From Candidatus Sulfomarinibacteraceae bacterium (GTDB lineage: Bacteria > Acidobacteriota > Thermoanaerobaculia > Thermoanaerobaculales > Sulfomarinibacteraceae): DNA of 64,000 nucleotides. Below are positions 1 to 16,591 of this stretch, piece by piece. Location: NCBI GenBank assembly GCA_963796455.1, contig CAWCLO010000004.1, positions 928,001 through 992,000 on the forward strand. The letters run 5' to 3'. Every line of letters starts with the position of its first letter. Positions within the stretch are counted from its first letter, which is position 1. The position numbers and the translations under genes were made by a program. Below the pieces are notes generated by a model that did no database searches, had not been told where the DNA came from, and worked only from the letters and a program-made list of their open reading frames with translations.

Positions 1-534
1 CCAGGTGATATCACAAACGACGGCAGGCACTTTGCGTACATGCTCCAGGCTGAAGAGACGGGTTGGGATATCTGGGCGATGCCTTTGAATGGGTCGGGGG
101 AGGCCTTTCCGCTGTTGCAGTCTGAGTTTATCGAGGTCCGTCCGACCTTTTCCCCGGACGGCAAGTGGTTCGCCTACGGGTCGAACGAATCAGGTCGATT
201 CGAGGTCTATGTCCGCCAGTTCCCCGGACCCGGTGGCCAATGGCAGGTCTCGACCGGCGGCGGAACCGAGCCCATGTGGAGCGGTGACGGATCGGAGATC
301 TACTACGTCGATCCTGGGGGAAACCTCGTGTCCGTGCAGGTCGAGGCTGGATCCGCCTTCAGAGCGGGTTTGCCGGAGACGCTTTTTGCTCCTCCCATCT
401 ACCCGACGATCCAACGCGAGCGCTACGTAGTGAGCGCCGACGGCCAGAAATTCCTGATTCTATCCACGCCCTCAGGTGAAGCTGTGCGGCCCACCACTGT
501 GCTGCTCAACTGGCACTCAGGTCTCCGGGACTAG
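1..534 (+). CDS. C-terminal part of a TolB/PD40 beta-propeller protein (often the tail of a Ser/Thr kinase); runs off the left edge
   Basis: Frame is open from base 1; PD40-like motifs 'PTFSPDGKWFAYGSNESGRFEVYV' and 'PMWSGDGSEIYY'. Confidence 0.75.
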   Translation, partial: PGDITNDGRHFAYMLQAEETGWDIWAMPLNGSGEAFPLLQSEFIEVRPTFSPDGKWFAYGSNESGRFEVYVRQFPGPGGQWQVSTGGGTEPMWSGDGSEIYYVDPGGNLVSVQVEAGSAFRAGLPETLFAPPIYPTIQRERYVVSADGQKFLILSTPSGEAVRPTTVLLNWHSGLRD

Positions 535-551
535 GCTGATACACTGAAGAG

Positions 552-1235
552 GTGGCCCGAGAATTCAGCCTACGTTTCGACCTCGATTTGAGCGAGGCCC
601 TGGGAAGACGATTGTGCCCGGACGCCAAGATCGTTCAGGAGGATCGAAATCTGGTCATGGCCGGGCAGACGATGCTCGATCTCGACCGTCACAACGGCCT
701 CGATGCGGCGTATCTCGCGATCGCCGAGCACCGTCCCTTGCCGCTCGGGCGATATCTTCTGATGCGGAACCGCGGTGAGGATGCTTTCTGGACCTATCAG
801 GCGGTGGTCCACGATCTCGAAGAAAAGCCGTCCTGCCGTGCCGGAAACGTTCGCCGAAGTCTGACCGCGATTCTCAAGGACGGCGTCAAACGCGGTATGA
901 CCTCGGTCTCCGTCGAGCCCCTCGGGGTGTGGCGGTCCCGGGGGCTCAAGATCGAGGAAATGGTGGACGCTTTCGAGGCTGCGGTTCTCGAGGTCAGCGT
1001 CGGGCTCGAAGCTCCGTTGCGGCTGACCCTGTTGCTCAGCGACCTCGAGCTTGTCGAGGAGGTCTCACACCTCTTGCGATCGCGTCTGCTGCGGAAGGCC
1101 AAGCGAAGTTTCAGGACCGTTGACGGAGAGTCTGCGCTGGTCGAAGTCAAACAGCGCGGTTTCAGGCTTCACTGCCGCTTCGTGCCCGGGTCCCTGTCGG
1201 GTTATTCCGTCACCTGCATGGATCACGCGGTCTGA
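552..1235 (+). CDS. hypothetical protein, weak macro-domain-like resemblance
   Basis: 227-aa ORF; extended -10 (TG-a-TACACT, 537-545) 6 nt before the GTG start. Confidence 0.55.
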   Translation: MAREFSLRFDLDLSEALGRRLCPDAKIVQEDRNLVMAGQTMLDLDRHNGLDAAYLAIAEHRPLPLGRYLLMRNRGEDAFWTYQAVVHDLEEKPSCRAGNVRRSLTAILKDGVKRGMTSVSVEPLGVWRSRGLKIEEMVDAFEAAVLEVSVGLEAPLRLTLLLSDLELVEEVSHLLRSRLLRKAKRSFRTVDGESALVEVKQRGFRLHCRFVPGSLSGYSVTCMDHAV

Positions 1236-1431
1236 GGGTTCGCGACGGCTCACATCCGTTGTGCCTTCTTATGACCGACTCGGACGCGGCCACGCCGTCA
1301 CTTCCCCCGATTGCTGCCCCTGATCGCTGTTCCCGGTCGCTGCTCACTGTTCTGTCGCTGGACACTGTTGCTGCCGCTGCCGCCGCCAGCCGTCTCTGGC
1401 CACCCGATTCCCCTCCGTGTATGCTGTCCCG

Positions 1432-1806
<375 letters not shown>

Positions 1807-1948
1807 TTTAACACCGCCTGCCAAGTGGGAGGGTTGTCTTGACTGCGCAGAGGAGCAGAGGATAGGAGAGCAGGGGAGAGGGTGATGGAACGCACACTGG
1901 TTCGGGATTGATGGCCACCGGTGTCCGATCCGATGTAATGTTGAAAGC

Positions 1949-2842
1949 GTGAAATCGGAATTCGCACCCCTCGAGCCCGGTGAGCCGATCGGCGTGGTGG
2001 CATTGTCAGGGCCGGTGGACGACGACAAGCTCGATGCCGGTCTTTCGGTGTTGCGTGCCTGGGGGCATCCCTTGGTGGAAGCTTCCAATCTTCGCCTGAA
2101 GGACTTGTACCTTGCAGGTTCGGACCAAGAACGTCTCGCCGGTTTCGAAGAGGTGGTCGATTCGGGCGTCCGTTGGATCGTGGCGGCGAGGGGGGGCTAT
2201 GGTTCGACCCGTCTCCTCGAATCGGTCTCGTTTCCGGATCTGCGTCGGCGGGGTGTGCATCTGATCGGCTATTCGGACCTCACGGCATTTCTCAACCCTT
2301 TGGCCCTTGATGGAGGGGCGATTCAGTTTCATGGGCCCATGGTGGCGGCCGGTCTTACCCGGACTCACAACGCAAGGCGGCTGCACGAAATGCTGACGGG
2401 AGATTTGGTGGGTCAGATTCTCTATCGCTTTCCGCCGAGCTCGGTCCTTCGACCTGGCTGCGTCGATGGCACGGCACTTGGCGGAAATCTGACCCTTTTG
2501 TCGGCCCTCGTCGGCACACCGTGGGAACCTGATTTTGATGGTTCGGTTCTTTTTCTCGAAGAGGTCGGCGAGCCCCTCTACAAGCTCGATCGAATGTTGA
2601 CCCACCTCCGGGGCTCTGGTAGATTGCGCAACGTGAAAGCATTGATTGGCGGGAGCTTGCGCGGTTGTCGACCGGCTCCGGAACGATCAAGACGGTGGCG
2701 GATGTTGCTCGAAGAGACGGCGCCTCCCGGGGCCTCGATCGTGGTCGGGTTGCCCTTTGGTCACGGTGCCGCAAATCTCGCTTTTCCAATCGGCGCGCGG
2801 GTCGAACTCGACACCGGTGCCGGGTGCGTTGTCTGGAGTTGA
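1949..2842 (+). CDS. ldcA: LD-carboxypeptidase (S66 family)
   Basis: ARGGYGS, IGYSDLT, HGPM, GGNL, LFLEEVGE, PFGHG motifs. Confidence 0.92.
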   Translation: MKSEFAPLEPGEPIGVVALSGPVDDDKLDAGLSVLRAWGHPLVEASNLRLKDLYLAGSDQERLAGFEEVVDSGVRWIVAARGGYGSTRLLESVSFPDLRRRGVHLIGYSDLTAFLNPLALDGGAIQFHGPMVAAGLTRTHNARRLHEMLTGDLVGQILYRFPPSSVLRPGCVDGTALGGNLTLLSALVGTPWEPDFDGSVLFLEEVGEPLYKLDRMLTHLRGSGRLRNVKALIGGSLRGCRPAPERSRRWRMLLEETAPPGASIVVGLPFGHGAANLAFPIGARVELDTGAGCVVWS

Positions 2843-2843
2843 G

Positions 2844-3641
2844 ATGGCGAAGTTCAGGGTGAAATCGACAGGCGGAGGAACGCACGACTCGCTGGAGCCG
2901 ATGCGCAGCGAGTTTCCGAAAGGGAGCGTGATCTTCGCCGAGGGAGATCTCGGGCTGGCCATGTATGTCATCGAAACCGGTCAGGTTGAAATCCGGAAGG
3001 TGCTCGGCGGTAAGGAGCGAACCCTGGCGACCCTGGCCAAGGGCGACTTCTTCGGCGAGATGTGCATGCTCGAGGATGAGAAACCGCGATCGGCCTCCGC
3101 CCACGCGATCGAGGATGTCAATCTGGTGATGATCGACCAGTCGGCCTTCACTTTCATACTCAAACACAACCCGGAGATCGCCATCCGGATGATGCGCAAG
3201 CTGGTCCTGCGATTGCAGCAGACCACCGAGTTGCTCGAAGAGGCGGTTGGACACAAGGTCGATATCGAGGATTCAGGGATCAAAGAACCGGTGGCGCCGT
3301 CGCACGACCCGAACGCGAGGCTGGTGGAGATCACCAGCGGAATCGTCTTTCCGCTCGCCGAATCAAAAGAAACCACCGTCGGGCGGATTGACCCGGTAAC
3401 GGGCATTCTTCCCGACGTGGATCTCACGCCGGTGGACGGCAAACGCTCGATCTCGAGACGCCATGCCCGGGTTCGGCGTGAGGACGACGGCACCTACAGT
3501 GTGGTCGAAGACGTCGGCACGATGAACGGGACCTTTGTCAACGGCGTTCGTCTGGTTGCGGGGCGCGCCTCGCCGGTGGCACCGGGTGACACCGTGGTCT
3601 TCGGGACCATCCAGTGCCGATTCGAGGTTGAAGGCGCCTGA
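2844..3641 (+). CDS. cyclic-nucleotide-binding domain + FHA domain protein
   Basis: N-terminal 'GDFFGEM...PRSASA' cNMP domain; C-terminal FHA 'VGR...ISRRHA...DVGTMNGTFVNG'; ATG 1 nt after the ldcA stop. Confidence 0.88.
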   Translation: MAKFRVKSTGGGTHDSLEPMRSEFPKGSVIFAEGDLGLAMYVIETGQVEIRKVLGGKERTLATLAKGDFFGEMCMLEDEKPRSASAHAIEDVNLVMIDQSAFTFILKHNPEIAIRMMRKLVLRLQQTTELLEEAVGHKVDIEDSGIKEPVAPSHDPNARLVEITSGIVFPLAESKETTVGRIDPVTGILPDVDLTPVDGKRSISRRHARVRREDDGTYSVVEDVGTMNGTFVNGVRLVAGRASPVAPGDTVVFGTIQCRFEVEGA

Positions 3642-5716
3642 TCCGCCCCGAGGATCCCCTGACAGTCCTCAAGGGCATCGGTCCCCGCTCGGCCGAGGCG
3701 CTGGCTGCGGAGGGCTTTGAGAGGGTCGTCGATCTGCTCCTCCATCTGCCGCGGCGCTACGATGACCGATCGCGCCTGACCACTCTCGAGCGCAGCCTGC
3801 AGCCTGGGGAGTGGGTTCTCATTCGCGGCTCCGTCAAGGGCGTCAGGGTGCGGCGAATACCGCGTCGGCGGCTGCATATCGTTGACGGTTTCATCGATGA
3901 CGGGTGTGGGAATCTCAAGGCCGTGTGGTTCAACCAGAGGTGGCTCGGCCGCCGCCTCGAGGACGAACCGGAGCTCTATCTCTACGGCCAGATCCGCAAG
4001 ACAAAGGGCGGCGGCGTTGAATTGATCAACCCCGAGATCGAAAAGGTCGAGGACGACGCCGAGAGGATCGTCCCCATCTATCGACGGATCGGTCGTTTCG
4101 GAGGACGACGGCTGCGAAACCTGATCGGGCAGTGTCTCGAGGCCGTTCCGCAGTGTCCCGATCCATTGCCGGAGGCCATTCGTCGCGAGTATGGTCTGTC
4201 CGAACTCGGCCCCGGCCTTCGCGAACTCCATGCTCCGGTAGTGCCTTCGAACGACGACGAACGCCACCTCATGATGACTGAGCTTGGGGATGGTCGAAGG
4301 GCTGGGCACCGCCGTCTCGCCTTCGACGAGTTGCTGGCGTTTGCATGCACGGTGACGGAGAATCGTGATCGCCGTGAGGGGCTCGATGGACCTCTGATCA
4401 AAGTGACCGAAAAGGCCGAAAAGCAGCTCTGCGAACTGCTACCTTTCCGACTCACCGATGCCCAGCGACGGGTGGTGCGGGAGATCTCGGCCGATCTCGG
4501 CCGGTCGCGACCGATGGCCCGCCTGGTGCAGGGCGATGTGGGTTCGGGAAAAACCGCGGTGGCGGCGGTGGCCATGGCCATGGCGCTGGAAGCAGGGTTT
4601 CAGGTCGCGATCATGGCCCCGACGGAGCTCCTCGCCGAACAACACCTGCGGACCCTCGATGGGATTTTTACTTCGGCAGGCTACCCTCCACGACTCCTGG
4701 TGGGATCTCTGACGGCGGCCGAACGGCGCGCTGTCAACGGGGGCCTCGCGGATGGATCGCTCCGCCTCGTCATCGGCACCCATGCCCTGTTCCAGGAATC
4801 GGTGGAATTCCATCGTTTGGGTCTGGTGGTGGTCGACGAACAACACCGTTTCGGTGTGGTCCAGCGCTCTGCTCTGGTTGCCAAAGGCGCCTCGCCCCAC
4901 CTGCTGGTGATGACCGCGACACCGATCCCGAGGTCCCTGGCATTGACCGTATATGGAGATCTCGAACTATCCGTTATTGACGAAATGCCTCCTGGGCGAC
5001 AGCCGGTGAGGACGGTCCTTCGACCAGCGAGCGCTCGCGCCAAGGTCTTTGATTTCATCCGAACCGAGCTCGGGGAGGGTGGTCGAGCTTTTATCGTTTG
5101 TCCATTCATCGATCCCAACGAGGACATCCCGGTTGCCGCGGTTTCAGAACGCTTCGAAGACATCCGGAATCGCCTCCAGGGCTTCGATGTCGGAATTCTC
5201 CACGGCCGCCTGTCGAGTCACGAGCGTGACGAGGTCAGCGCCGGTTTCCGCGACGGGTCGATCCAGGTCCTTCTGGCGACGACGGTCATCGAGGTCGGGG
5301 TCGATGTTCCGGAAGCCACGATCATGGTGATCGAGTCGGCGCAGCACTTCGGTTTGTCGCAGCTTCATCAACTTCGAGGCAGGGTTGGGCGCGGCTGCCG
5401 TCCGGCCTGGTGCATCCTTCTGACCGACGGAGCCGTGAGCGAGGACGCCCGACGCCGGCTCGGGGTTGTCTGCCGCTCGGTTGATGGTTTCGAAATCGCC
5501 GAGGCGGATCTGGAAATACGCGGCCCCGGTGAACTGATGGGCACCCGGCAGTGGGGGCCGGCGGCCTTCCGCTTTGCCAACCTGGTGCGCGATCTGGGGG
5601 TGATCGGACGGACCCGCGATCTGGCCGCTGAATTCTCCAGCCAGGGTAAATTGAAGAAACTTCGTCGCGACCTTGGGCTTTATCACCCGATCGAATCTGG
5701 GTTTCGCGCGAGCTGA
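3638..5716 (+). CDS. recG: ATP-dependent DNA helicase RecG; probable CTG start at 3638
   Basis: QGDVGSGKT, DEQH, MTATPIPR and QLRGRVGR motifs; RecG-type N-terminus LKGIGP...DLLLHLPRRYDDR is encoded in frame upstream of the GTG at 3848. Confidence 0.95.
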   Translation: MIRPEDPLTVLKGIGPRSAEALAAEGFERVVDLLLHLPRRYDDRSRLTTLERSLQPGEWVLIRGSVKGVRVRRIPRRRLHIVDGFIDDGCGNLKAVWFNQRWLGRRLEDEPELYLYGQIRKTKGGGVELINPEIEKVEDDAERIVPIYRRIGRFGGRRLRNLIGQCLEAVPQCPDPLPEAIRREYGLSELGPGLRELHAPVVPSNDDERHLMMTELGDGRRAGHRRLAFDELLAFACTVTENRDRREGLDGPLIKVTEKAEKQLCELLPFRLTDAQRRVVREISADLGRSRPMARLVQGDVGSGKTAVAAVAMAMALEAGFQVAIMAPTELLAEQHLRTLDGIFTSAGYPPRLLVGSLTAAERRAVNGGLADGSLRLVIGTHALFQESVEFHRLGLVVVDEQHRFGVVQRSALVAKGASPHLLVMTATPIPRSLALTVYGDLELSVIDEMPPGRQPVRTVLRPASARAKVFDFIRTELGEGGRAFIVCPFIDPNEDIPVAAVSERFEDIRNRLQGFDVGILHGRLSSHERDEVSAGFRDGSIQVLLATTVIEVGVDVPEATIMVIESAQHFGLSQLHQLRGRVGRGCRPAWCILLTDGAVSEDARRRLGVVCRSVDGFEIAEADLEIRGPGELMGTRQWGPAAFRFANLVRDLGVIGRTRDLAAEFSSQGKLKKLRRDLGLYHPIESGFRAS

Positions 5717-5933
5717 GAGCTCGAGATTATGGTGCGGCTCCGGGTGATGGCACAATAGGCTCACGTTCGATAGGAGGTTTCCAATTGCAGCACGGATCCG
5801 AAATTCAGACGATCACCGGCGGTGATTTCTACCAACGTCTTCGCACCCTCCAGGATCTCCTCGAGCTTGGTGACGAAATGGTCAGCGGGCGCGTCTGGGG
5901 TCGGTTGCAACGAATGGTCGGAGGTGATTTCTG

Positions 5934-7250
5934 ATGGGGAACAACCAATGGACACCCGGCGTCGACGATCCGCAACTGGTGGTCGAGCCGGGCCAGTTGG
6001 CTCATCTCGATACCAGTCCCGAAACCATGCTGCCTATTCCAGGCAGCCGAATGTTCGAAATCAACGAGGCGCTCAAGGTCTATCTCGCGGACCGGCCCGA
6101 TGGGGTGGTATTCGACGCCAGCCAGGGTGATGGTGGCGCGAGCCTGCCCGGGGTTCCGTCAGAGATCCTGGATATGGCCCATCGACTTCAAGTCGAACAT
6201 GGAACGGGTTACGACAAACCCTTCGGCACCCCGGAGTTCCGACGTTGTGTGGTCGAGGACTACTGGGGCCTGGATGCGGCAACCGGTTGGGGCCCGGCGA
6301 ATGTCATCGCCTGCCAGGGCGGTCGTGACGCGCTCATCAAGTCATACGATGCGGCCCAGTTCCTCGGTCACCGCCGGCGCGGCGACTTCGTAGTGACCTC
6401 CCGAGTGCCGTGGATCTCGTATAACTGGGGCCCCTACGCGGTTGGAGCCAACGTGATGCTGGCCCCCGGCCGTGAGAACGAAGCGTGGACCCTGACTCCT
6501 GAGGCCATCAACCAGTGCGGCGAATTCGCCGCGCGACTCGACGGGCGGCGTCTGGCGATGCTGGTGATCACGAGCCCCGACAACCCGACCGGCCGCAGCA
6601 TGACTCCGGAGCGCCAGATCCAAATCGCCCGAGCCGCCTTTGCAGCCGGGGTTCCCTATGTCTTCTTCGACTGGATCTATCACCGGGTGACCGATGGAGA
6701 AGCGAACGATCTCAACTCCTTTCTGGGCGCCCTCGAGCCCGAGGAACGAGAAAGGTGCATATTCCTTGACGGGCTCACCAAAGCCCTCGGTGCGAGCAAT
6801 ATCCGAAACGCCCACCTCGTCGCTTCAGAGAAGGTCATCAAGTTCATCCAGAGCCGCGCTTCCCACGCCGTGATTCCATCGTTCTACAGCCTCGCGGTGG
6901 CCATCGCAGCCTATAGGATGGGTTTTGCAGAGGCGTCAAAGACCATCGTCGGCCCCACCAACGCGTCCAGAAAAGTGATGGCCGGAAAGCTCGCCGAACT
7001 GGGGATCAACCACATTTTGGGCAAGGGATATTACGCCTTCCTCGATCTGGCCCCCTGGATCGAGAAAGCAGGTCTTGCAGACAGTGCCGAACTCGGAAGT
7101 CTGCTGGCGGAGCGTCACGGTCTGGCCGTCGTTCCCGGGGTCTATTTCTCCGAATACGGACGCAACTGGATTCGATTCTCCTACGCGTTGCCGCCGAGCA
7201 CGACGGAGGCGGCGGTAGATCGTTTGTGGGAAGCGCTGTCCTCGCTGTGA
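5934..7250 (+). CDS. PLP-dependent aminotransferase, class I/II
   Basis: SPDNPTG, D-x-x-Y (DWIY), PLP lysine in 'DGLTKALG', 'VVPG...IRFSY'. Confidence 0.9.
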   Translation: MGNNQWTPGVDDPQLVVEPGQLAHLDTSPETMLPIPGSRMFEINEALKVYLADRPDGVVFDASQGDGGASLPGVPSEILDMAHRLQVEHGTGYDKPFGTPEFRRCVVEDYWGLDAATGWGPANVIACQGGRDALIKSYDAAQFLGHRRRGDFVVTSRVPWISYNWGPYAVGANVMLAPGRENEAWTLTPEAINQCGEFAARLDGRRLAMLVITSPDNPTGRSMTPERQIQIARAAFAAGVPYVFFDWIYHRVTDGEANDLNSFLGALEPEERERCIFLDGLTKALGASNIRNAHLVASEKVIKFIQSRASHAVIPSFYSLAVAIAAYRMGFAEASKTIVGPTNASRKVMAGKLAELGINHILGKGYYAFLDLAPWIEKAGLADSAELGSLLAERHGLAVVPGVYFSEYGRNWIRFSYALPPSTTEAAVDRLWEALSSL

Positions 7251-7263
7251 GGGGCAGCGGATC

Positions 7264-10113
7264 ATGATGCGGCCCAAGGACTGGGGCCTTTTTGCCGAAA
7301 AGGTACAACTGGCGATCGAAAATTCACAGCAGGGTGACCCCAAGGGTGGGACGTCGGGTCTGGAGATCGAGTACAACATTCTCGATCGCGATCTCGCGCC
7401 GGTGGCGCATGTCGGTTACGGTCCGGAACGCAGGTCCTTCGCCGATTATCTCCACGATGAAAGGCTGCCCGATTGGGTTCGGGATCGATTTCAGCTCGAG
7501 GTCTTCCATTGGATGACCGAGCTCACGACCCAACCCTGTTATTCGGCCCGGGCCACCGCCGCTCAATCGCGACTTCTCGAGGGCGTGCTGCTCGATACGC
7601 TCGCGGATATCGGTCATTCCTTTGGTGCGTCCTTCCTCGCAATGCACGGAAATATTCCCTGTCAGGTCGATGTGAACGGTGGCAGCATTCCGGATGGGTG
7701 GAACCTCGCCCGCCAGCGCTACCTCAGAAAGTGTGTCGATCTCTTTGGCGATCGTCTCGCGACGGCGGGGATTCACACCAACCACAGTTTTCCCGAGGCA
7801 CTCCTGTCGTGGGACTTCTTCCACCTTCCGCTCTCCGAGCGCCAGGGCAGGACCATCGAGTACTATCGCAATCATTCGGTGATCCGAGCGACCCGGTTGC
7901 TGCGGCCGATGTGTCCGGTGTTCATTGCAGTCAGCGCCGCCTCACCATTTGCGTGGGAGCAGGTCGAGGGCGCCAACCAGATTGTCCTGACCGATTTTGA
8001 CTCCTGCCGGCTGCTCGCATTCCCCAACCCCGAGGATCTCGATGTTTCGGGTCTCTACGGAAGCCACGCGGACTACCTCGACATCTCCTACCGATTGGTG
8101 AGATCGGGCGTCCGCTTCGGCGCCAACAACTGGACCCCGGTGAGAGCCCGTTCCGATGTCGATCCGGTTCGCCGCAATATCACCGCAACCAGCGATCAGC
8201 TGCGGGAGCTTTACAGCCGCGGCATCTATCCAACCGGCGAGCACGGCAGTCTCGAGGAAGCCGAACGCGCACTGGTGGTCGAAAACCTCTGCGCCCGGGT
8301 CGATCTGCCGATGAACCGGGTGGAGGTGCGCACCGACGAGGGCGGGGATGATCTCGCGCTTGCGACGGCCAAGATCCTCTTCAAAGATCTCCTGATGTTG
8401 CGGATCTATGCCGAACCGGAGTACGGCGCCAGCTATGCGTACGACGTCGCCGACATCGCCCGGGCGCGGGCGAATGAAAAGGCGGCGGCGCGGCGCGGCC
8501 TGGACGCTTCGATCGAACACCCCATGACCGGTACAAAAATCAGCATCCGAGCCTATCTCGGGGAGTTGCTCGAAGAGATTGCTCCTCTGGCGACGGCGCT
8601 CGGAGCCGGCGAGGAACTTGCGCCACTTCATGAGATGGCGGCCGGCGGGCCCAATCCGGCCGCGATGATCCGTGCCGGTTTTACCAAGGCGGTCGGAACC
8701 GATGCACCGCGAGCGCCTTCGGGTGCGAGGGTGATTCCATCATCGATGTTGATTGATCTGTTCGAACAACGTCGCCGGATGATCGCCCGGGAGACCCAGG
8801 AGATCGCCGACCGACCCGACCGTCAGGGCGCCGAGTGGCCAAAGATGGCCCCTCTCGTGGCGGGGCTCGAAAGCTTGGCGGTCGAACGGCCGGCGATGCC
8901 GGTTCGGCTCGGCAGGGCCACGGAAGGAGTGCGGGTCGAGGGACTCGGTGATCGCGCATCGGAGGTCCTGGCGCTGGCTGTCGATCTGGTGCGGATCCCA
9001 TCGGTGACGAACTGCCCCGATGAGCGTTTGGAGCAGGTCTTTTCGTGCGCCGGATTTGTCGCCAACCACCTTGCTTCGGGCAAACTGGATGTCAGGCTCT
9101 TCGACCGCGGCCGCTATCCGGCGGTGGTCGCCGCGTTTCCCGGCGTGACCCAACCGAAAATCACCCTGTGTGGACACTTCGACGTGGTGCGTCCGGAACC
9201 GGACGACGCCCAGTTCGAACCTCGCATCCAAGGAGACTATCTGTGGGGTCGTGGATCGGCTGATATGAAAACCGTGGTTGCAAGCTACATGGTTTGGATG
9301 CGCGAACGGTTGGCCATGGGGCCGCCATACCCGCCCTTCAACTTGTTATTGATTGGCAACGAGGAGAACGGAGAGGGTGATCCTTTTGGCACTCCTCACG
9401 TCCTCAAAACCCTTGAAAAGGAGAGTGGGTGGCGCCCGGAGTTGATGGTGGTTGGTGAGCGGACCGGAGAAAAAGGAGACGAACTCTACGGAGAAGTGTG
9501 CACCGAAAGCAGGGGAATCCTGCGCGCTCACCTAACGGCCCGGGGCGTCAGCGGTCACACCGGAACCAGCGGCAGCCCGGCGGATCTCCTCGATCAACTT
9601 GTCGAGGCCCAGGCGGTTCTCAAATCTTTTTTCAAAAGGCACCTGACCCTCGCCAGTGTCGATGGGTGGGAGACAACCGCTCGCTTCCCCTTCCTCAATG
9701 TCGGCGAGCCCGGGGTGTACAACATCACGGCATCGCTGGGGGTACTCGGTATCGAGATCCGCCCGATCCCGGGCGACGATCTGGACGGTTTCGTGAAAGA
9801 GACCAGGGATCTCTGCCGCGAACTCGGTCTCGAGGCGGTCGTGGAGCTCATGGAACCCGGAGTCAGTTGCCCTCCGACCAATCCCCATCTCGGACAGTTG
9901 TTGCAGGCCGTCGAGGATGTTTCGGGCGCACCGGCGGTGGTTGGCAAAAAGAAGCCGGGTTCTTCAGCCCGTTTTGCGCCAGGCGGCAATCAGGTCGTGT
10001 GGGGGCAATCGGGCATCGGGCCCCACTCGCGAGAAGAGCGCCATTTCATCCCGTCGATCGAACCGTATATGCAGGTCCTCGACGCCTTTGCCACCAAGCT
10101 CCTTTCAGAATGA
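7264..10113 (+). CDS. fusion of a GCS2/glutamate-cysteine-ligase-like domain and an M20 (ArgE/DapE-like) metallo-amidohydrolase
   Basis: N-terminal GLEIEY, ELTT, GIHTN, AASPF, RVEVR; C-terminal CGHFDVV, GRGSADMK, NEE, GE and HSREE metal-ligand motifs. Confidence 0.82.
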   Translation: MMRPKDWGLFAEKVQLAIENSQQGDPKGGTSGLEIEYNILDRDLAPVAHVGYGPERRSFADYLHDERLPDWVRDRFQLEVFHWMTELTTQPCYSARATAAQSRLLEGVLLDTLADIGHSFGASFLAMHGNIPCQVDVNGGSIPDGWNLARQRYLRKCVDLFGDRLATAGIHTNHSFPEALLSWDFFHLPLSERQGRTIEYYRNHSVIRATRLLRPMCPVFIAVSAASPFAWEQVEGANQIVLTDFDSCRLLAFPNPEDLDVSGLYGSHADYLDISYRLVRSGVRFGANNWTPVRARSDVDPVRRNITATSDQLRELYSRGIYPTGEHGSLEEAERALVVENLCARVDLPMNRVEVRTDEGGDDLALATAKILFKDLLMLRIYAEPEYGASYAYDVADIARARANEKAAARRGLDASIEHPMTGTKISIRAYLGELLEEIAPLATALGAGEELAPLHEMAAGGPNPAAMIRAGFTKAVGTDAPRAPSGARVIPSSMLIDLFEQRRRMIARETQEIADRPDRQGAEWPKMAPLVAGLESLAVERPAMPVRLGRATEGVRVEGLGDRASEVLALAVDLVRIPSVTNCPDERLEQVFSCAGFVANHLASGKLDVRLFDRGRYPAVVAAFPGVTQPKITLCGHFDVVRPEPDDAQFEPRIQGDYLWGRGSADMKTVVASYMVWMRERLAMGPPYPPFNLLLIGNEENGEGDPFGTPHVLKTLEKESGWRPELMVVGERTGEKGDELYGEVCTESRGILRAHLTARGVSGHTGTSGSPADLLDQLVEAQAVLKSFFKRHLTLASVDGWETTARFPFLNVGEPGVYNITASLGVLGIEIRPIPGDDLDGFVKETRDLCRELGLEAVVELMEPGVSCPPTNPHLGQLLQAVEDVSGAPAVVGKKKPGSSARFAPGGNQVVWGQSGIGPHSREERHFIPSIEPYMQVLDAFATKLLSE

Positions 10114-10213
10114 ACCGTGTCCGCGTCCCCGTCCGCGCCTGATCGGAAAATGAGTTTCAGCGGACGAGTCGGCCTTCAGGGCCCATCGGGCGCGGACTTG
10201 GATGAGGGAACGA

Positions 10214-11225
10214 TCAGTCGCCGTCGAAGATGCCGCCGATGCCGCCCATTTTGCCGAGGATGGAGCCCTCACCCTTGCTCCCTCCCATGGTCTGCGGGGC
10301 CGCCTGCCAGATGCGTCCGGCGAGGCGTGAGAAGGGCAACGACTGGAGCCACACCTTGCCGGGTCCCCGGAGCCGGGCGAAGAAGAAGCCTTCACCACCA
10401 AAGATGGCGGATTTGACGCCGCCGACGAACTCGATGTCGTAGTTGACCGAGGTCTCGAGTGCAACCAGACATCCGGTGTCCACGCGCAGGGAGTCTCCCG
10501 GGCCAAGCTCGCGCTCGATGATGGTGCCGCCTGCGTGGATGAATGCGAGACCGTCGCCCTCGAGTTTCTGCATAATGAAGCCTTCACCGCCGAAAAGGGC
10601 AGTGCCGACCTTTTTCTGGAACGCAATGCTGACCGAAACACCCTTGGCAGCGCAGAGGAATGCGTCCTTTTGACAGACGAGGTTGCCGCCGTGACGGCTC
10701 AGATCGACCGGGATGATCTTGCCTGGATAGGGCGATGCGAAGGCGGCCCGGGCTTTTCCCGTGCCTTTGTGGGAGAAGACAGTCATAAAGAGGCTCTCGC
10801 CGGTGAGCACCCGTTTGCCTGCGCCGACCAGCTTGTCGATCATCGAGCTCTGTTTCTGTGAGCCATCGCCGAAGATCGTCTCCATCTCGATGCCGTCACC
10901 CATGTACATCATGGCTCCGGCCTCTGCGACCACGCTCTCGCCGGGATCGAGCTCGACCTCGACGAATTGCATCTCTTCACCGTGGATATCGAAATCCACG
11001 TCGTCCGCGGTCCCGCCGGAGCCTCGTCCGGGCGGTGGGGGTGGAGGAGTGTGACCCTTGAGCTCGGCCACCGTGTTGGCCGGAGCCCACGCGGTCACGC
11101 CTTCACAATAGACCTGGGTCGTCGGTCCATAGGCTGCTGCCCTCAAGGGCATCCACCAGCTCCGCCTCGCTCATCGGTCCGACCGTCTGACCATCCACCG
11201 CCACGTACCACATCCTGTCACTCAT
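10214..11225 (-). CDS. GYF_2 (DUF4339)-like domain + TIGR00266/AIM24 family protein; one frameshift near 11133
   Basis: AIM24-type 'EAGAMMYM...LTGESLF...QKDAFLC...GGEGF'; SD GAGGAGG then ATG at 11225 gives MSDRMWYVAVDGQTVGPMS..., which joins the downstream frame if one base is removed; TATAAT at 11261-11256. Confidence 0.8.
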
Positions 11226-11402
11226 TCTTCCTCCTCAAAATGCTCGGGTCGGTAGATTATACGTCGAACCGCGGCGGGAGATTCCAGCCAGACGAGGGGA
11301 AAGGGAGAAAGGGAGCAGGGGAGAGAGGGAGACTGAGTAGTCGGGATCATGGCAGGGTGGGCGATCCCCACATCTCCCTTTCGTGCGAGTTGGCCTCGAT
11401 AC

Positions 11403-12068
11403 TCAAACCCGCGCGATACACCCCGCATCATCATTTGCAGGTTTGTTCACGTAGGTGCTCACCGGATAGGCCTCCATTTGACCCGCCGGATGGGCGACGA
11501 GGATTTCGCTGAGACGATCGGCGGCCAGCGGTTCGGGTTTCAACCATTCGTCGTATCGGTCATCAGGTAGAATGACCGGCATGCGGTCGTGGAGTCCCGC
11601 GATGAGGTCGTTGGGTGAGGTGGTGATGATGGTGCAGGTTTCCAGAGGGTCGCCTTCCCCCTTGTTCCACCGTTCCCACAGACCTGCAAACGCGAATGGC
11701 CGGGCGTCCGCAAAGTGGATGAAGTGGGGCTGTTTGCCGCCGTCGGTCTTGACCCATTCGTAGAATCCGTCGGCCGGGATCAGGCAACGGCGGCTTTTGA
11801 CGGCGGAGCGAAAGGATGGCTTCTCCGCCACGGTCTCTCCCCGGGCGTTGATCATCCGGGCACCCATTTGGGGGTCCTTCGCCCACGACGGAACCAGCCC
11901 CCAGCGCAACATGGCGCATTCTCTCGATCGATCCTGTGCAGAGCGGACAACGGGGATCGGCTGGGTCGGCGCGATGTTGAATCTGGGTTTGAGATCTCTC
12001 GGCGGATCAACGTCGAAGACATCGGCCAACACCGAAGCATCGATAATCAGGGCAAATCTTCCGCACAT
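11403..12068 (-). CDS. SOS response-associated peptidase (SRAP/YedK family)
   Basis: MCGRF N-terminus, RFNIAPTQ, WGL, INARGET, GFYEW, HDRMPVIL. Confidence 0.95.
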   Translation of the reverse strand: MCGRFALIIDASVLADVFDVDPPRDLKPRFNIAPTQPIPVVRSAQDRSRECAMLRWGLVPSWAKDPQMGARMINARGETVAEKPSFRSAVKSRRCLIPADGFYEWVKTDGGKQPHFIHFADARPFAFAGLWERWNKGEGDPLETCTIITTSPNDLIAGLHDRMPVILPDDRYDEWLKPEPLAADRLSEILVAHPAGQMEAYPVSTYVNKPANDDAGCIARV

Positions 12069-12117
12069 GGGCACATTGTATGACGGCGGGCGCAAAAACG
12101 GTCAGGGCGGAAGAACA

Positions 12118-12950
12118 CCCGCAGATTGCCCAAATGACCCAGATCGGGGGACGCCGCAAAAACGAAGCCACAAAGACACGAAGGCGTCACATCAGGAAAA
12201 CCACGGAGGAACAGAGAGAGAGAGAGAACGCCCGCAGATCACGCAGATAAACGCAGATGACAGCATTTTTTGCAGTGGCGTCAGCCATCTCTGCAGGCGA
12301 ACGACGTCCGCCTCTCGAGGTTTTAACGCAGAGAAGCAAAGGCGCAAAGACGCAGAGGGCTTCCCCCGATGCAAGGCAGAACCGGCATGCCGGAGGCGTG
12401 CCGGCCGGTGGGGAGCGGGGTGACTCCGAACGCTGGCGATTGGAGACGCCCCGCTCCTCACCGGCGACTGGCGATCGGAGATCGTCTGTCGATCTGCCGA
12501 CACTGACGGAACCCTCTCAAAAGCTCGCCAATCGGGCCTTTGCGTTCTTTGCGGTTCAACCATGTGCACGCGAGACGCGTGCACCACCATGGTGGTGCAG
12601 CCGTCCCGGCTGCACTCCGGTCGTGCCTTTGCGATGGCTTCTGTGTTTTTCTGTGTGCTCTGTGGGCCTTTGCGGCCAGCTCCATCTGTGATTCCATCTC
12701 TGTGTCTCCGTGCCTCTGTGGTTTTCTTGGTGTGGCTGCTTTGTGTCTTCGTGTTTGCGACGAGAGCATTTGCGATGGATCTGCGTCTATCTGCGTGATC
12801 TGCGGGCTACTCGCGGTGCGATGTGATGGCTTCGTGCCTTGGTGTCTTGGTGGTCGCGACGAAATCGGTTGCAATAATTACCCCCGTCGCCCAATCTCCC
12901 TTTCCCTCCCTTTCCCCCTTTCTCCCATCCTCCCTTTCTCCCTTTTCTCT
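12118..12950. repeat. composite intergenic cluster of long-range inverted, short-period repeats and REP-like palindromes
   Basis: 12230-12258 vs 12779-12807 inverted (28/29 match); 12196-12225 vs 12697-12726 inverted; REP-like pair at 12564-12615; pyrimidine tract at 12894-12950. Confidence 0.8.
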
Positions 12951-12995
12951 CCGGATCTCGCCTGAAGTATCATGTTTGCCCCGCTGGAGGTCACG

Positions 12996-15125
12996 GTGAA
13001 AAAGAACTTGATCGCTGTTTCGTGGGTCTTTTTATTGGTGTTCATGGCGATGCCGAGCTCGGCAGACGGCGACAAACGCGCCTTCGAGATCGCCGATTAT
13101 TTCCGGACAGCATCGGTGGCATCGCCATCGGTCAGTGCCGATGGCTCACGGATCACCTTCACGGTCACCCGCCGCGAGATCGAGAGCGGTCAATCCTGGA
13201 CCGAGGTCTGGATGATGTCCGCCGACGGCAGCGGACTTCGGCAAATGACCCAGGGGCTGCACCACGACAGCTCCCCGGTTTTTTCACCAGATGGAAAGGA
13301 GCTGCTCTTCGTGTCCGACCGTGGCGACGGATCGCAGCTCTATCTGCTGCCGGTGGATGGCGGCGAGGCACGGCGGCTGACCGATTACCCGCCGGGTGTT
13401 TCGAATCCCGTCTGGTCACCCGATGGCAAGTACATCGCCGTGCAATCAGAGGTCTATCCGGAGTGCGGTTTCGACGGCGAGTGCAACGCCACCACTGCCG
13501 AATCCATCGAGGGTGGCCCCTTGACGGTGCGGATGACTGACGAACTCCTGTATCGCCACTGGACAGGTTGGCGGAACGGCCGTTTTTCCCATGTTCTGCT
13601 GGTTGATGTCGCAACCGGGGCAGTGGTGCGCGACATGACGCCCGGGCGTTGGGACAGCCCGACATTCTCGGTGGGTGGGGGAGGCTTTACGTTTTCGCCG
13701 GACAGCCGGGAATTGTGCGTGGTTTCCAATCACGATCGGGACCAGGCGCGCTCGACGAACGCCGATCTGTGGCTGATTCCGGTGGAAACGGCGGCGGTCA
13801 CACCGGAGGCAGTAAATATCACCACGGCAAACCAGGGCTGGGACGGCCACCCGGTTTACTCCCCGAGTGGACGGTACATCGCCTATCTGAGCCAGCAAAC
13901 ACCTGGATACGAGTCGGACCTGTATCGAATCAGTGTCTTCGATCGCAAGAAGAAGACCACCGAATACCTCACCGGGCACAAGAATTTTGACAACTGGATC
14001 AACGACCTGGCGTGGTCTGCCGATGAACGATGGCTCTACTTCACCGGTCACGAGACCGGGGAGACTCCCATTTACGCCCTCGATCTCGAAGGCGGTGATA
14101 TCCGGAAGGTTCACAGCGACGGGGCGATTGCCGGCTGGGGCCTGGGGGCAGAGGATTCAACCATCATCTATGCTCGCTCCAAAGTCGGTTCTCCGCCGGA
14201 GATCTTCTCGGTTTCCTCTGCGGGCGATGACGCAAAACAACTCACCCGTTTGAACGATGCGCTCGTATCTCAGGTCGATATCCGGCCTGCCGAGGTGATG
14301 TGGGTCGACGGTGAAGACGACACCAGAATCCAGGTCTTTGTGGTCAAACCTCATGGCTTCGATCCAACAAAAAAATATCCACTGATCCTCAATGTGCACG
14401 GTGGTCCGCAATCACCCTGGAAGGATCGTTATCGCGGCGACTGGCAGGTCTACCCCGGCAAGGGCTATGTGGTGGCGTTTCCGAATCCCACCGGGTCGGC
14501 CGGGTTTGGTCAGGATTACGTGGATGCCATTTCATGTGACTGGGGTGGACGCGTCTACCGAGATCTCATGAAGGTGACCGATGCGCTGGAAACCCTGCCC
14601 TATGTGGACGGCGATCGGATGGGTGCGATGGGTTGGTCTTACGGCGGCTACATGATGATGTGGTTCGCTGGGCATACCGACCGATTCAAGGCACTTGCAT
14701 CAATGATGGGTGTCTATGACCTGCGGTCGATGTGGGGAGCGACCGAGGAGCTCTGGTTTGTCGAGCACGACCTGTGCGGAGTTCCCTGGAAATCGAAAGA
14801 CTACGAAAAATGGTCGCCGTCGGCCTATGCGGAAGGTTTTTCATCACCCACTCTGGTGATTACCGGCGAGCGCGATTTCAGGGTTCCCTACACCCAGAGT
14901 CTTCACTTCTTCACCGATCTCAAGGTGAAGGATGTGCCCTCTCGTCTGGTGGTTTTCCCGGGTTCCGGGCACTGGCCGGGTTGGTACGAGATGGCCTTTT
15001 ACTACCTCGTTCATCTGGACTGGTTTCACCGTTGGCTGGGTGGCGAACCCGCACCATGGGATCCAAAGACCTTCTTGAGGAATCAGGTTTTCAGTCCGCC
15101 GACGGTGCCGGACAATCCCGAGTGA
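12996..15125 (+). CDS. secreted S9-family peptidase (dipeptidyl/acylaminoacyl peptidase)
   Basis: SD GGAGG then GTG; signal peptide; PD40 repeats; HGGP, GWSYGG nucleophile, D(FRV), GH. Confidence 0.93.
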   Translation: MKKNLIAVSWVFLLVFMAMPSSADGDKRAFEIADYFRTASVASPSVSADGSRITFTVTRREIESGQSWTEVWMMSADGSGLRQMTQGLHHDSSPVFSPDGKELLFVSDRGDGSQLYLLPVDGGEARRLTDYPPGVSNPVWSPDGKYIAVQSEVYPECGFDGECNATTAESIEGGPLTVRMTDELLYRHWTGWRNGRFSHVLLVDVATGAVVRDMTPGRWDSPTFSVGGGGFTFSPDSRELCVVSNHDRDQARSTNADLWLIPVETAAVTPEAVNITTANQGWDGHPVYSPSGRYIAYLSQQTPGYESDLYRISVFDRKKKTTEYLTGHKNFDNWINDLAWSADERWLYFTGHETGETPIYALDLEGGDIRKVHSDGAIAGWGLGAEDSTIIYARSKVGSPPEIFSVSSAGDDAKQLTRLNDALVSQVDIRPAEVMWVDGEDDTRIQVFVVKPHGFDPTKKYPLILNVHGGPQSPWKDRYRGDWQVYPGKGYVVAFPNPTGSAGFGQDYVDAISCDWGGRVYRDLMKVTDALETLPYVDGDRMGAMGWSYGGYMMMWFAGHTDRFKALASMMGVYDLRSMWGATEELWFVEHDLCGVPWKSKDYEKWSPSAYAEGFSSPTLVITGERDFRVPYTQSLHFFTDLKVKDVPSRLVVFPGSGHWPGWYEMAFYYLVHLDWFHRWLGGEPAPWDPKTFLRNQVFSPPTVPDNPE

Positions 15126-15238
15126 GAACATTGGCCGTGGCGGTGCCCGGATTCGCCGATTCTGGGGGATGATGGAAAGCGGGAACTACCGGGAAGTGGT
15201 AGCCTTCTGCGCAGAAAGCGCACAGTTGAGGAGATGAG

Positions 15239-16591
15239 ATGGCAGGAATTTTCAAAGCCTATGATATCCGGGGAACCTATCCCGACCAATTGAATGAGGA
15301 GACTGCCTTTCGCGTGGGTTACCACTTTCGCGAGCTGCTCGACGATGAAGACCTGGCCCTCGGCCCGGTGGTCGTGGTTTCGCGCGATATGCGTTCGCAT
15401 TCGGTGCCCATGGCCCGCGCCCTCAAGGATGGTCTGAGAGCGAGTGGAGTCGCGGTTGTGGATATCGGTGTGGCCGATACGCCGCAGAACTATTTCGGGA
15501 TCGGTTTTCTCGGCGCATCTGGAGGCATTCAGGTCACTGCGAGCCACAATCCCGCGGTGTACAACGGCTTCAAAATGTCGCGGCGCGATGCGATCCCCGT
15601 GTCGTATGAGACCGGGATCGAAAATCTCGAGGCTCTCGTCGAGGCGTCCGATGTCCCGTTGGATTCACCGCCGCTGGCCGGCGAAGAGGAGCGGTCGGTC
15701 TTCGAGGAGTACACCGCCCACGTCCTGGCCGAGGTGACCGTGTTGGAACCGCGGCTCAAGCTTGCCGCCGATGCCGCCAACGGGATGGCCACGATCTATC
15801 TGCCGATCCTCGAACAGCTCAATGTGGACCTGGTGCCGCTCTATTTCGAGCTCGACGGGACCTTTCCCAATCACGAGGCGAACCCCCTCAAACACGAAAA
15901 CCTGGTGGATGTGGAGCGGGCGGTTTCCGAAAACGGTTGTGATCTCGGAGTCGCCTTCGATGGTGACGCGGATCGCGCCATCTTGATTGACGAAAAGGGC
16001 CGTTTCATATCGGCGGACAAGCTGACCGGGCTACTGGCGCCGCGCTTTCTCAAGGATGAGCCGGGCGCATCGATCGTCTACGATCTGCGCTCCTCCTGGG
16101 CGACCAAGGAGGCAATCGAGGAGGCCGGTGGTGTTCCGGTTCGAGAGCGGGTCGGCCACAGTTTCATGAAAGCGACGATGCGGGAGGTCGGATCTCCCTT
16201 TGGCGGAGAACTCGCCGGGCACTTCTATTTTCGCCGCAATTTCACCGCCGACTCGTCCATCATGACGGTCATCGAGACCCTCAATCACGTACGTGAGAAT
16301 GGGCGGCCGCTGTCGGAACTGGTAGCGCCGCTCGAGCGCTACTTCGCCACCGGTGAGATCAATTTCCACGTCGAAGACAAGGAGGGCATGATCCGACGCC
16401 TGGCTGAAGATTTCTCGGATGGCGAGGTTGATTTCTTAGATGGGATCACCGCCCAGTTCGATGACTGGTGGTTCAACGTCAGACAATCGAATACCGAGCC
16501 CCTGCTGCGATTGGTGCTCGAAGCGAAGACCCAAGAGTTGATGGATGAGAAAACCGCGGTGCTTCTCGGCTATCTCGGAACACCTGAGTAG
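15239..16591 (+). CDS. phosphomannomutase/phosphoglucomutase
   Basis: FKAYDIRG, TASHNP, FDGDADR, GELAGH, RQSNTEP. Confidence 0.95.
   Translation: MAGIFKAYDIRGTYPDQLNEETAFRVGYHFRELLDDEDLALGPVVVVSRDMRSHSVPMARALKDGLRASGVAVVDIGVADTPQNYFGIGFLGASGGIQVTASHNPAVYNGFKMSRRDAIPVSYETGIENLEALVEASDVPLDSPPLAGEEERSVFEEYTAHVLAEVTVLEPRLKLAADAANGMATIYLPILEQLNVDLVPLYFELDGTFPNHEANPLKHENLVDVERAVSENGCDLGVAFDGDADRAILIDEKGRFISADKLTGLLAPRFLKDEPGASIVYDLRSSWATKEAIEEAGGVPVRERVGHSFMKATMREVGSPFGGELAGHFYFRRNFTADSSIMTVIETLNHVRENGRPLSELVAPLERYFATGEINFHVEDKEGMIRRLAEDFSDGEVDFLDGITAQFDDWWFNVRQSNTEPLLRLVLEAKTQELMDEKTAVLLGYLGTPE

Follow-up and report, generated by a model that had tools for sequence, protein, structure and literature searches.

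A two-gene cassette pairing an aminotransferase with a ligase-M20 hydrolase fusion, and a candidate protect-transaminate-deprotect cycle

Several routes of amino-acid biosynthesis combine an aminotransferase with a deacylase of the M20 family in a protect-transaminate-deprotect pattern, as represented by the pairs DapC and DapE, ArgD and ArgE, and LysJ and LysK. Across these known pathways the acylating enzyme is exchanged, the protecting group being acetyl, succinyl or LysW. Here, we report a cassette of two genes from a Candidatus Sulfomarinibacteraceae bacterium (Acidobacteriota; GenBank assembly GCA_963796455.1) that encodes three enzymes, namely a pyridoxal phosphate (PLP) dependent aminotransferase (AT) and, fused in a single protein, an ATP-dependent ligase of GshA/YbdK fold and a metal-dependent deacylase of DapE/ArgE type. 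The cassette lies in a stretch of 64,000 nucleotides (contig CAWCLO010000004.1, positions 928,001 to 992,000 of the forward strand), hereafter called the window, and positions are counted from its first letter unless another locus is named. Documented below are the three enzyme classes with their conserved catalytic residues, the fusion and the close linkage of all three parts, and a tentative reading of the cassette as an ATP-driven protecting-group cycle is weighed against its alternatives.

Architecture and linkage of the cassette

5934..7250, + strand: AT, a class I/II PLP aminotransferase of 438 aa (P0002); open reading frame (ORF) with an ATG start
7251..7263, + strand: spacer of 13 nt from the AT stop codon to the fusion start, read from the sequence
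7264..10113, + strand: fusion ORF of 949 aa (P0001) with an ATG start, comprising ligase domain, linker and M20 domain
7264..8886, + strand: carboxylate-amine ligase domain, residues 1-541, with a GshA/YbdK fold according to model and Foldseek matches
8887..8949, + strand: linker, residues 542-562, coil in the full-length model
8950..10110, + strand: M20 di-metal amidohydrolase domain of DapE/ArgE type, residues 563-949, from Pfam, PDB match and fold

A purine run of GAGG type overlaps the AT stop codon ahead of the fusion start. The fusion is not an assembly artefact. Both PF01546 and PF04107 occur in 119 of the 120 top database rows (one of them the query itself), in proteins of 866-983 aa and 60-100% identity; 539 of 8000 scored database candidates fall at E ≤ 1e-3, and more than 100 relatives of the fusion are full-length. 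A scan of species-representative genomes yielded 55 loci with a relative of the fusion, attributed by title to Acidobacteriota lineages (30), Chloroflexota (13), Planctomycetota (9) and an unspecified 'bacterium' (1), together with one 'Deltaproteobacteria' contig of 2.8 kb and one gammaproteobacterial locus with broken frames. The domain junction is crossed without indels by contigs from other runs (X2, 8623-8956; X1, 8871-9395), although one of these public runs may be the source sample. In two proteins, P0122 (1391 aa) and P0123 (1380 aa), PF00155, PF04107 and PF01546 occupy one chain, and in locus L020 this triple fusion of AT, ligase and M20 domain is a single ORF (5510-9838). It is the triple fusions that suggest a physical association of the AT with the fusion protein.

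The linkage of the two genes was assessed from both sides. Starting from the fusion, the AT was found upstream and on the same strand in 54 of the 55 loci, at a distance, as read by eye from the coordinates, of ≤300 nt in 48 and of 0.5-5.4 kb in six. Metagenome loci picked by the AT only were meant as an unbiased linkage test: 600 pattern matches gave 535 relatives, of which the best 80 were kept, and 18 of these with less than 1.5 kb downstream were set aside, leaving 62 informative loci. An M20 partner lies downstream in 57 of them, with the ligase within 300 nt in 44, with the ligase after an insert of 0.4-3.5 kb in ten, and without a ligase in three. The inserts between AT and fusion revealed no recurring informative partner; they consist of a multihaem cytochrome plus GSDH block in L008, L012 and L017, of NUDIX and two alpha/beta hydrolase genes in L128, and of a DNA methylase in L134. 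In L008 the AT and the MtrC-like cytochrome (348-3650) read as one 1100-aa frame, and in L106 the cytochrome/GSDH block follows the AT and the fusion is absent.

These observations bear out most of what a sequence-only reading of this stretch had claimed earlier. Its two ORFs 13 nt apart agree with the ORF list, and all motifs that it had named (GLEIEY, ELTT, GIHTN, ASPF, RVEVR, HFD, ADMK, EE and a C-terminal His) are present in the translation. The description of one 949-aa fusion protein stands on the relatives, the 55 loci, the triple fusions and the junction contigs, which also cross position 8900, where it had asked for read support, and the proposed AT linkage holds from both sides and extends to in-frame fusion in P0122 and P0123. 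The GCS2-type N-terminal half and the complete M20 domain with its metal ligands were likewise recovered, by model fold and Foldseek matches for the former and by alignment to DapE and invariance in 52 family members for the latter. A wrong fold, a frameshift artefact and an unlinked AT, any of which would have undone that reading, were each found not to apply.

The AT matches Pfam Aminotran_1_2 (PF00155; 1.1e-24, 87.7 bits against a cut-off of 19.7) and, with its PLP-site residues and alpha-carboxylate arginine, belongs to the class I/II (fold type I) aminotransferases. No NCBIfam model reaches its cut-off on the AT, the top one being GntC with 88.8 bits against 415. By sequence the closest solved proteins belong to subgroup Ib of the aspartate aminotransferases (1j32 at 4e-18; 1bkg), and in alignment to 1j32 the residues K283, N217, D246, Y249, R291 and R414, whose roles we take to be those generally assigned in aspartate aminotransferases, fall at canonical positions. 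All six are invariant across 54 family members, as is R131, the position of which presumably corresponds to the distal-carboxylate binding site of subgroup Ib enzymes. The family also has an invariant stretch of its own, D61-G73, common to three phyla.

For the ligase half, the modelled fold settles a GshA/YbdK (GCS2) assignment, although the sequence similarity is marginal. Pfam GCS2 scores 18.9 bits on the fusion, under the cut-off of 21, and the NCBIfam models gshA_cyano (44.7 bits against 249) and YbdK (31.6 against 425) both remain far under theirs; the domain thus stays below the curated sequence thresholds of the GCS2 superfamily but has its fold. The AlphaFold model of residues 1-545 has a mean predicted local distance difference test score (pLDDT) of 90.8 and a predicted template modelling score (pTM) of 0.92. 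Its top Foldseek matches were GshA 3nzt (2e-11), YbdK 1r8g, GshF 3ln7, 1tt4 and E. coli GshA 1v4g, with E from 2e-11 to 4e-10, probability 1.0 and a query-based TM-score (TMq) of 0.45-0.57. The Pup ligase PafA, plant and yeast glutamate-cysteine ligases and Dop form the next tier, and glutamine synthetases are the weakest fold matches (E 5e-3 or worse). The model of residues 1-545 was built on 35 sequences from three phyla, in all of which E34, E36, E79, E86, H171, N173, R294, R296, R352, E354 and R356 are invariant, a pattern of Glu, His, Asn and Arg residues that may resemble the metal and glutamate sites of GshA. Two long helices (493-516 and 518-541) close the domain in the predicted structure. 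A profile search with the ligase reached YbdK over the C-terminal part only (8.9e-6), and the ESM Atlas cluster closest to it is that of a stand-alone Chloroflexota hypothetical protein of 448 aa, followed by GshA clusters; none offers a functional name.

The M20 half is recognized by Pfam Peptidase_M20 (PF01546; 9.7e-16, residues 635-944, 58.7 bits against a cut-off of 24.6), and M20_dimer remains under its cut-off (18.6 bits against 21). The model of the full-length fusion has a pLDDT of 87.3 and a pTM of 0.81, the linker being the least confident segment of its part of the chain (pLDDT blocks of 78 and 67), and places a lid or dimerisation subdomain at about residues 745-865. The half resembles in fold 2rb7 first (target-based TM-score 0.83, 27% identity), then structures of DapE (0.69-0.77) and ArgE (8uw6), and carnosinase/CN2 dipeptidases of the M20 family are also among the matches. 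By sequence, the PDB match is again 2rb7 (6e-20), along with DapE chains, under whose ligand motifs GHFD, ADMK, NEE, GERT and GH of the cassette protein fall with the lid histidine in register; the residue numbers and roles in DapE used for this mapping are those we assume for that enzyme. H638, D667, E700, E701, E732, H921 and the lid residue H765 are invariant in 52 family members, and the protein thus has both an M20 domain with lid and a complete set of two-metal ligands plus lid histidine. No equivalog model for DapE, ArgE or LysK is reached: DapE PRK13009 scores 79.7 bits against 284, AcOrn-deacetyl 40 against 297.7 and LysK NF003367 24.9 against 363. In a quick maximum-likelihood tree all M20 domains from cassettes group together (SH-aLRT 95), and a long branch sets them off from true LysK and the ArgE-like protein of the window genome.

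Distribution and neighbourhood

The fusion was detected in 36 of 301 Acidobacteriota genomes and is clustered in few families, with 19 of 22 genomes positive in one of them. All five genomes searched in the genus of the window carry it, against none of two from other genera of the family and none of five from the sister family. This patchy occurrence therefore indicates an accessory module rather than a universal housekeeping step. The carriers stem from sediment, groundwater, wastewater and similar metagenomes in three phyla; most of the genomes are metagenome bins in which absence depends on completeness, and the counts span related genomes that are not independent.

In the window the cassette is flanked by recG (3848-5716) on one side and by an AIM24-family gene on the opposite strand on the other, and the genome holds a single copy of each cassette part, without a close paralogue. 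The same synteny recurs in loci of the Acidobacteriota type, with RecG in 31, LD-carboxypeptidase in 25 and AIM24 in 18 of the 144 loci with any match, and it says nothing about function. Further genes near the cassette, at 1949-2842, 2646-3641 and 12972-18436 of the window, encode an LD-carboxypeptidase (S66), a protein with cNMP-binding and FHA domains, an S9 prolyl oligopeptidase with PD40 repeats, a member of the phosphoglucosamine/phosphomannomutase family and a NodU/CmcH-type carbamoyltransferase. No relevant RNA leader or riboswitch was found upstream of the AT in a search of 5400-10600, which returned one chance-level miRNA match (E 0.92), and 12 loci from other phyla gave rRNA and tRNA matches only. 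Predicted promoters and terminators between 5600 and 10400 were not in excess of shuffled sequence (1 vs 0.9 and 5 vs 3.8), and the public runs listed for the sequence include no RNA run.

The informative neighbours of the cassette are amino-acid biosynthesis operons. In the Chloroflexota loci L032 and L054, argC, argB, argD, a small GNAT gene, argG and argJ come after the cassette, all over cut-off, and in L045 the same operon is divergent and lacks argG in the fetched part. Five loci in which the ligase is missing (L056, L057, L058, L062 and L063) have an aspartokinase gene (lysC) after the M20 gene, and then asd where the contig continues. Upstream of the cassette, cimA-leuB-ilvD was found in L046 and a split metE in L059. 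In L058, a DapL-like aminotransferase (TIGR03540, 461 bits against 593) and a GFO/IDH/MocA oxidoreductase (10645-13019) are divergent from the AT-M20-lysC-asd genes, and the genome of this locus (G072) has no match to DapA, DapB or DapF.

A candidate cycle and its alternatives

The best reading of the cassette, to which we assign a probability of about 40%, is an ATP-driven protect-transaminate-deprotect cycle acting on an amino-acid-type metabolite. In its favour are the three enzyme classes with intact active sites, the linkage and the triple fusions, the precedent of an AT with an M20 deacylase in DapC/DapE, ArgD/ArgE and LysJ/LysK, and the amino-acid biosynthesis operons among the neighbours. 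The ligase would install a removable amide handle on the metabolite at the expense of one ATP, the AT would transaminate the conjugate bearing the handle, and the M20 domain would remove the handle after transamination, the order being ligase, AT and hydrolase. The handle would be the gamma-carboxyl of free glutamate, and the substrate may be an alpha-keto acid that also carries an amine prone to cyclise or to be mis-transaminated. With installer and remover in one protein, the handle could be recycled as ArgJ recycles acetyl, but at a cost of one ATP. That the cassette is in addition a self-contained handle-recycling amination machine driven by ATP, whether by a glutamate handle or by the ratcheted variant set out below, we regard as doubtful. 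A protect-transaminate-deprotect pathway had also been proposed in the sequence-only reading, of which the enzyme classes and the linkage stood, whereas the route is still a proposal and the ligase turned out to be missing from intact AT-M20 pairs.

A number of observations weigh against the cycle, and the pathway with its substrate and activities is in any case a prediction from sequence and model. The ligase is dispensable and has been lost in at least two lineages in which AT and M20 remain adjacent. Of 151 sampled Anaerolineales genomes with a completeness of 85% or more, 47 have a match to P0001 at E ≤ 1e-50, and these comprise 34 full-length matches, nine stand-alone M20 proteins only, and four matches in pieces or at contig ends. 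The stand-alone orthologues, of about 390-400 aa, start at about residue 560-567 of P0001 and are 47-55% identical to its residues ~563-949, and in the fetched loci an AT orthologue (52-56% identity) stands directly before them. A ligase domain was not found elsewhere in any of the five searched genomes among these nine, nor was a DapD-type replacement over cut-off in ten genomes of the ligase-less lineage. The quick tree places the ligase-less Chloroflexota proteins in one clade (support 94) nested among fused proteins from Chloroflexota and Planctomycetota. The metagenome loci L101 and L104 have AT and M20 without ligase in the RecG ... AIM24/SRAP synteny of the relatives of the window, and in L101 (AT 931-2256, M20 2269-3516) the 13-nt spacing of the window is kept. 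Since the ligase is absent from intact AT-M20 pairs, an obligatory route with the ligase first would need another acylating enzyme in these lineages. The loss is less surprising because the installer is the part that differs among the known pathways.

Further objections come from the candidate products. Diaminopimelate (DAP) synthesis was examined by eight family searches on the genome of the window and 20-29 carriers, plus the 151 Anaerolineales genomes. DapF was over cut-off in all eight carriers from Acidobacteriota and all four from Planctomycetota, in none of 16 from Chloroflexota and not in the single gammaproteobacterial one; DapB was over cut-off in six of 20 carriers, with none of the eight Acidobacteriota among them. 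In Anaerolineales DapB was equally rare with the cassette (6/47) and without it (13/104). The Planctomycetota carriers have DapB together with DapL-like genes of 475-520 bits (cut-off 593), and the gammaproteobacterial carrier has DapD and DapB. The cassette as a general substitute for DapD/DapC/DapE or for DapL was rejected on the absence of DapF from the Chloroflexota carriers and on the coexistence of canonical DAP genes elsewhere. DapA-like matches in five Anaerolineales loci lie with proline-racemase-like and DAO genes or with hydrolase and aldehyde-dehydrogenase genes; these five are not DapA and belong to catabolic clusters of hydroxyproline or other type. As a separate observation, four Acidobacteriota carriers contain frames of 776-791 aa (G038:C8:176726, G039:C3:132257, G048:C44:15314 and G049:C43:154254) with a DapC_direct-like aminotransferase domain (221-232 bits), which suggests an aminotransferase fused to another domain.

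Lysine synthesis by the aminoadipate route gave a similar outcome. LysW exceeded its cut-off in 14 of 16 Chloroflexota carriers, irrespective of ligase presence, in two of eight Acidobacteriota and in none of four Planctomycetota. The genomes of L065 (fused) and L068 (ligase-less) both hold LysW, LysX, LysY, LysZ, LysJ and LysK, with true LysX at 345 and 361 bits (cut-off 276) and true LysK at 378 and 402 bits (cut-off 363), respectively; the cluster of L068 also includes homocitrate synthase, homoaconitase and homoisocitrate dehydrogenase, and that of L065 adjoins argG-argH. With this canonical cluster complete in both genomes, the cassette is not a stand-in for LysX or LysK. A LysW-free aminoadipate route, with the ligase as LysX analogue, the M20 domain as LysK and the AT as LysN, was thus rejected on the presence of canonical LysW, LysX and LysK in carriers. 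DapB is present in 19 of the 151 Anaerolineales genomes and DapF in none of 16 tested, and from this scarcity and the LysW clusters in both inspected genomes these bacteria seem to make lysine without DAP. An ornithine or arginine route was also rejected, the adjacent arg operons being complete with ArgJ; since they already hold argJ and argD over cut-off, the cassette is not needed for ornithine there. The genome of the window itself has an arg operon (L072, G000:C1:535001-553000; 4820-12786, minus strand) of argR, argG, an unmatched ORF of at most 414 aa, argC and argD, which continues with an N-acetylornithine carbamoyltransferase (427 bits against 288), argB and an ArgE-like M20 gene; ArgJ was not found in this genome by tblastn.

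The main rival, itself rather unlikely, makes the glutamyl moiety the amino donor. In such an ATP-ratcheted transamination, a gamma-glutamyl amide formed by the ligase, or glutamine where the ligase is absent, would donate its amino group, for example to oxaloacetate, and the M20 domain would hydrolyse the N-substituted 2-oxoglutaramate to 2-oxoglutarate and the released partner, making the amination irreversible. The free alpha-amino end of a gamma-glutamyl handle is itself a transaminase substrate, and this counts against the protecting-group cycle by fitting the rival at least as well. Among enzymes of solved structure the AT is closest to aspartate aminotransferases, with the invariant R131 at the presumed distal-carboxylate position, and a 2-oxoglutaryl amide is similar to the N-succinyl compound cleaved by DapE, which of the named enzymes is closest to the M20 domain. 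On this reading AT-M20-lysC-asd would make up four consecutive steps from oxaloacetate to aspartate semialdehyde, and argG, a consumer of aspartate, lies in or beside L032, L054 and L128, four loci when the arg operon of L045 is included. Loss of the ligase would also be easier to bear if another enzyme supplied the gamma-glutamyl donor. The analogous known system is the glutamine transaminase/omega-amidase pair (glutaminase II; MtnE/MtnU in methionine salvage), a conserved aminotransferase-amidohydrolase gene pair whose transamination step is rendered irreversible once the keto-amide is hydrolysed (PMC3223725). The 20 best PDB sequence matches of the AT include no glutamine transaminase, and the one amidase observed close to an AT without partner, in L155, is GatA (605 bits). 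Known omega-amidases are, we presume, of the nitrilase superfamily and differ in this from the M20 domain, usually fused to a ligase, of the cassette, which accordingly does not fall within that system. As we understand them, M20 enzymes normally release an amino acid and not ammonia, and the glutamine version would ask for new chemistry. A physiological need for an ATP-driven aspartate aminotransferase is moreover not evident. If true, this would be the first system to spend ATP on irreversible transamination via an M20 keto-amide hydrolase.

It is improbable that the association is merely a loose one, with an ordinary aspartate-type AT sharing an operon with a ligase-M20 protein that salvages N-acyl or gamma-glutamyl amino acids from necromass. 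In five of the 62 informative AT-picked loci (L106, L116, L119, L155 and L159) no partner was found within the 3.5-8 kb downstream, which speaks for such independence and also against an obligatory cycle, and two of these have the AT paired with a B12/radical-SAM-like gene; the patchy distribution and the sediment and groundwater origin of the carriers are compatible with salvage. The in-frame triple fusions, the partner present in the other 57 loci, the 13-nt spacing kept after ligase loss, and the invariant D61-G73 stretch, which sets this AT apart from aspartate aminotransferases in general, all argue for a functional link. In L116 (6433-7995) and L119 (6334-7968), a radical SAM protein of 520-544 aa, with weak matches to B12-rSAM methylase models, overlaps the start of a cassette-type AT that is 64-65% identical to that of the window, with no ligase or M20 gene within 8 kb.

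Slightly less probable still is a lineage-specific DAP route, in which gamma-glutamyl versions of the DapD, DapC and DapE steps would give LL-diaminopimelate in the lineage of the window and perhaps in other Acidobacteriota, the substrate being another one elsewhere. The genome of the window (90.5% complete) has DapF (158 bits against 115; G000 C10:641320-642084) and LysA (423 against 298; C1:895728-897104), whereas DapA, DapB and DapD have no match there and DapL none over cut-off; nor did tblastn find LysW, LysX or homocitrate synthase in it. The universal DapF and missing DapB of the Acidobacteriota carriers and the DapE-like M20 domain fit such a route. However, such a route has no known supply of tetrahydrodipicolinate when DapA and DapB are missing, and the Chloroflexota carriers lack DapF though their cassette proteins are orthologous. 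DapB was over cut-off in none of 31 relatives, the sister family included, and since the sister family without DapB is also without the cassette (0/5), the DapB gap does not track the cassette. The DAP source in this order is unexplained and does not follow the distribution of the cassette. Elsewhere in the same genome (L075, G000:C1:889001-903000; 6728-10810), the gene order on one strand is LysA, an M20D amidohydrolase (TIGR01891, 387 bits) and a 409-aa protein with 'Gate' (nucleoside recognition) domains, with MurQ coming next, and the amidohydrolase presumably resembles enzymes of the N-acetyl-DAP deacetylase type.

The least probable alternative is a gamma-glutamyl dipeptide or thiol cycle, in which the M20 domain would free an amino acid, for example cysteine, from a dipeptide, the ligase would join that amino acid to glutamate and the AT would replenish or deplete the pool: gamma-glutamylcysteine ligases are the best ligase fold matches, carnosinase/CN2 is among those of the M20 half and a ligase-hydrolase fusion could set the level of one compound, yet GshB (TIGR01380) was over cut-off in none of five carriers and without any match in three (G031, G046 and G072), the ligase is lost where AT and M20 stay, the nearest M20 structures are DapE/ArgE deacylases and not Cys-Gly dipeptidases, and no necessary role is left for the AT, the most tightly linked partner. 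A glutathione cycle was rejected on the same GshB result, and the suggestion in the sequence-only reading of a gamma-glutamyl metabolite with a Cys-Gly-type peptidase is not favoured. A glutathione-synthetase-like ATP-grasp region (204 bits, cut-off 299) was seen in the genome of the window at G000:C2:179089-180072, inside a 733-aa frame that may be a larger fusion. As general products, DAP, lysine via aminoadipate, ornithine or arginine and glutathione are each excluded or disfavoured, and the negative results for a general DAP role, for LysK or LysX and for glutathione narrow the candidate substrates of the proposed protecting-group cycle.

Comparison with described systems

No description of the AT plus ligase-M20 architecture was found in the literature searched, supplements excluded. 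The part of the GapMind 2026 work at hand treats only other replacements of DapE and ArgE (PMC13759103), and the corresponding part of a paper on thiohistidine dipeptides concerns one YbdK-like ligase in an unrelated cluster (PMC13674229). In databases the fusion is named 'M20 metallo-hydrolase' or 'succinyl-diaminopimelate desuccinylase' only. Such annotation misleads metabolic reconstruction, where the gene could be mistaken for DapE in genomes without the other genes of the DAP pathway.

The systems sharing the ligase fold are GshA, the N-terminal domain of GshF and YbdK, all of GCS2 type, from which the cassette differs in its marginal sequence similarity, in the fusion to an M20 domain and in having no glutathione synthetase over cut-off as companion in the five carriers searched. 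The Puu pathway is alike in its ATP-dependent gamma-glutamylation by PuuA, a ligase of the glutamine-synthetase superfamily, and in the later removal of glutamate by PuuD. PuuA is of the glutamine synthetase type, however, the weakest class of fold matches to the cassette ligase. PuuD is a hydrolase of class I amidotransferase type, and the intermediate steps of that pathway are carried out by an oxidase and a dehydrogenase and not by an aminotransferase.

Closer in chemistry is ArgJ, or ArgA with ArgE, where a protecting group is likewise removed and installed, in the case of ArgJ by one protein, and where ArgE is an M20 enzyme; ArgJ differs from the cassette fusion in transferring acetyl without ATP and in having another fold. 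The LysW system (LysX, LysZ, LysY, LysJ and LysK) and its archaeal counterpart ArgW/ArgX share with the proposed cycle the ATP-dependent amide to the gamma-carboxyl of a glutamate and an M20 enzyme at the last step. LysX is however an ATP-grasp enzyme, the glutamate belongs to the carrier protein LysW, and the cassette M20 domain is far from LysK in the quick tree, with the low LysK score given above.

The nearest comparison is with DapD, DapC and DapE, which follow the same protect-transaminate-deprotect logic with an M20 remover and, in some bacteria, a class I aminotransferase as DapC; DapE is the nearest named relative of the cassette M20 domain in both sequence and fold, and the gene order of AT, acylating enzyme and M20 hydrolase presumably recalls the dapC-dapD-dapE locus of Bordetella. 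The difference lies in the installing step, DapD being a CoA-dependent hexapeptide acyltransferase and the cassette enzyme an ATP-dependent ligase of GshA fold fused to the remover. If the protecting-group cycle is true, free glutamate plus ATP would stand as a fourth protecting-group solution beside acetyl, succinyl and LysW, in a clear case of the first and last steps of a pathway fused in one protein, and the cassette would be without precedent among pathways of the DapD/C/E, ArgA/D/E or LysX/J/K type in using free glutamate for protection with installer and remover in a single polypeptide.

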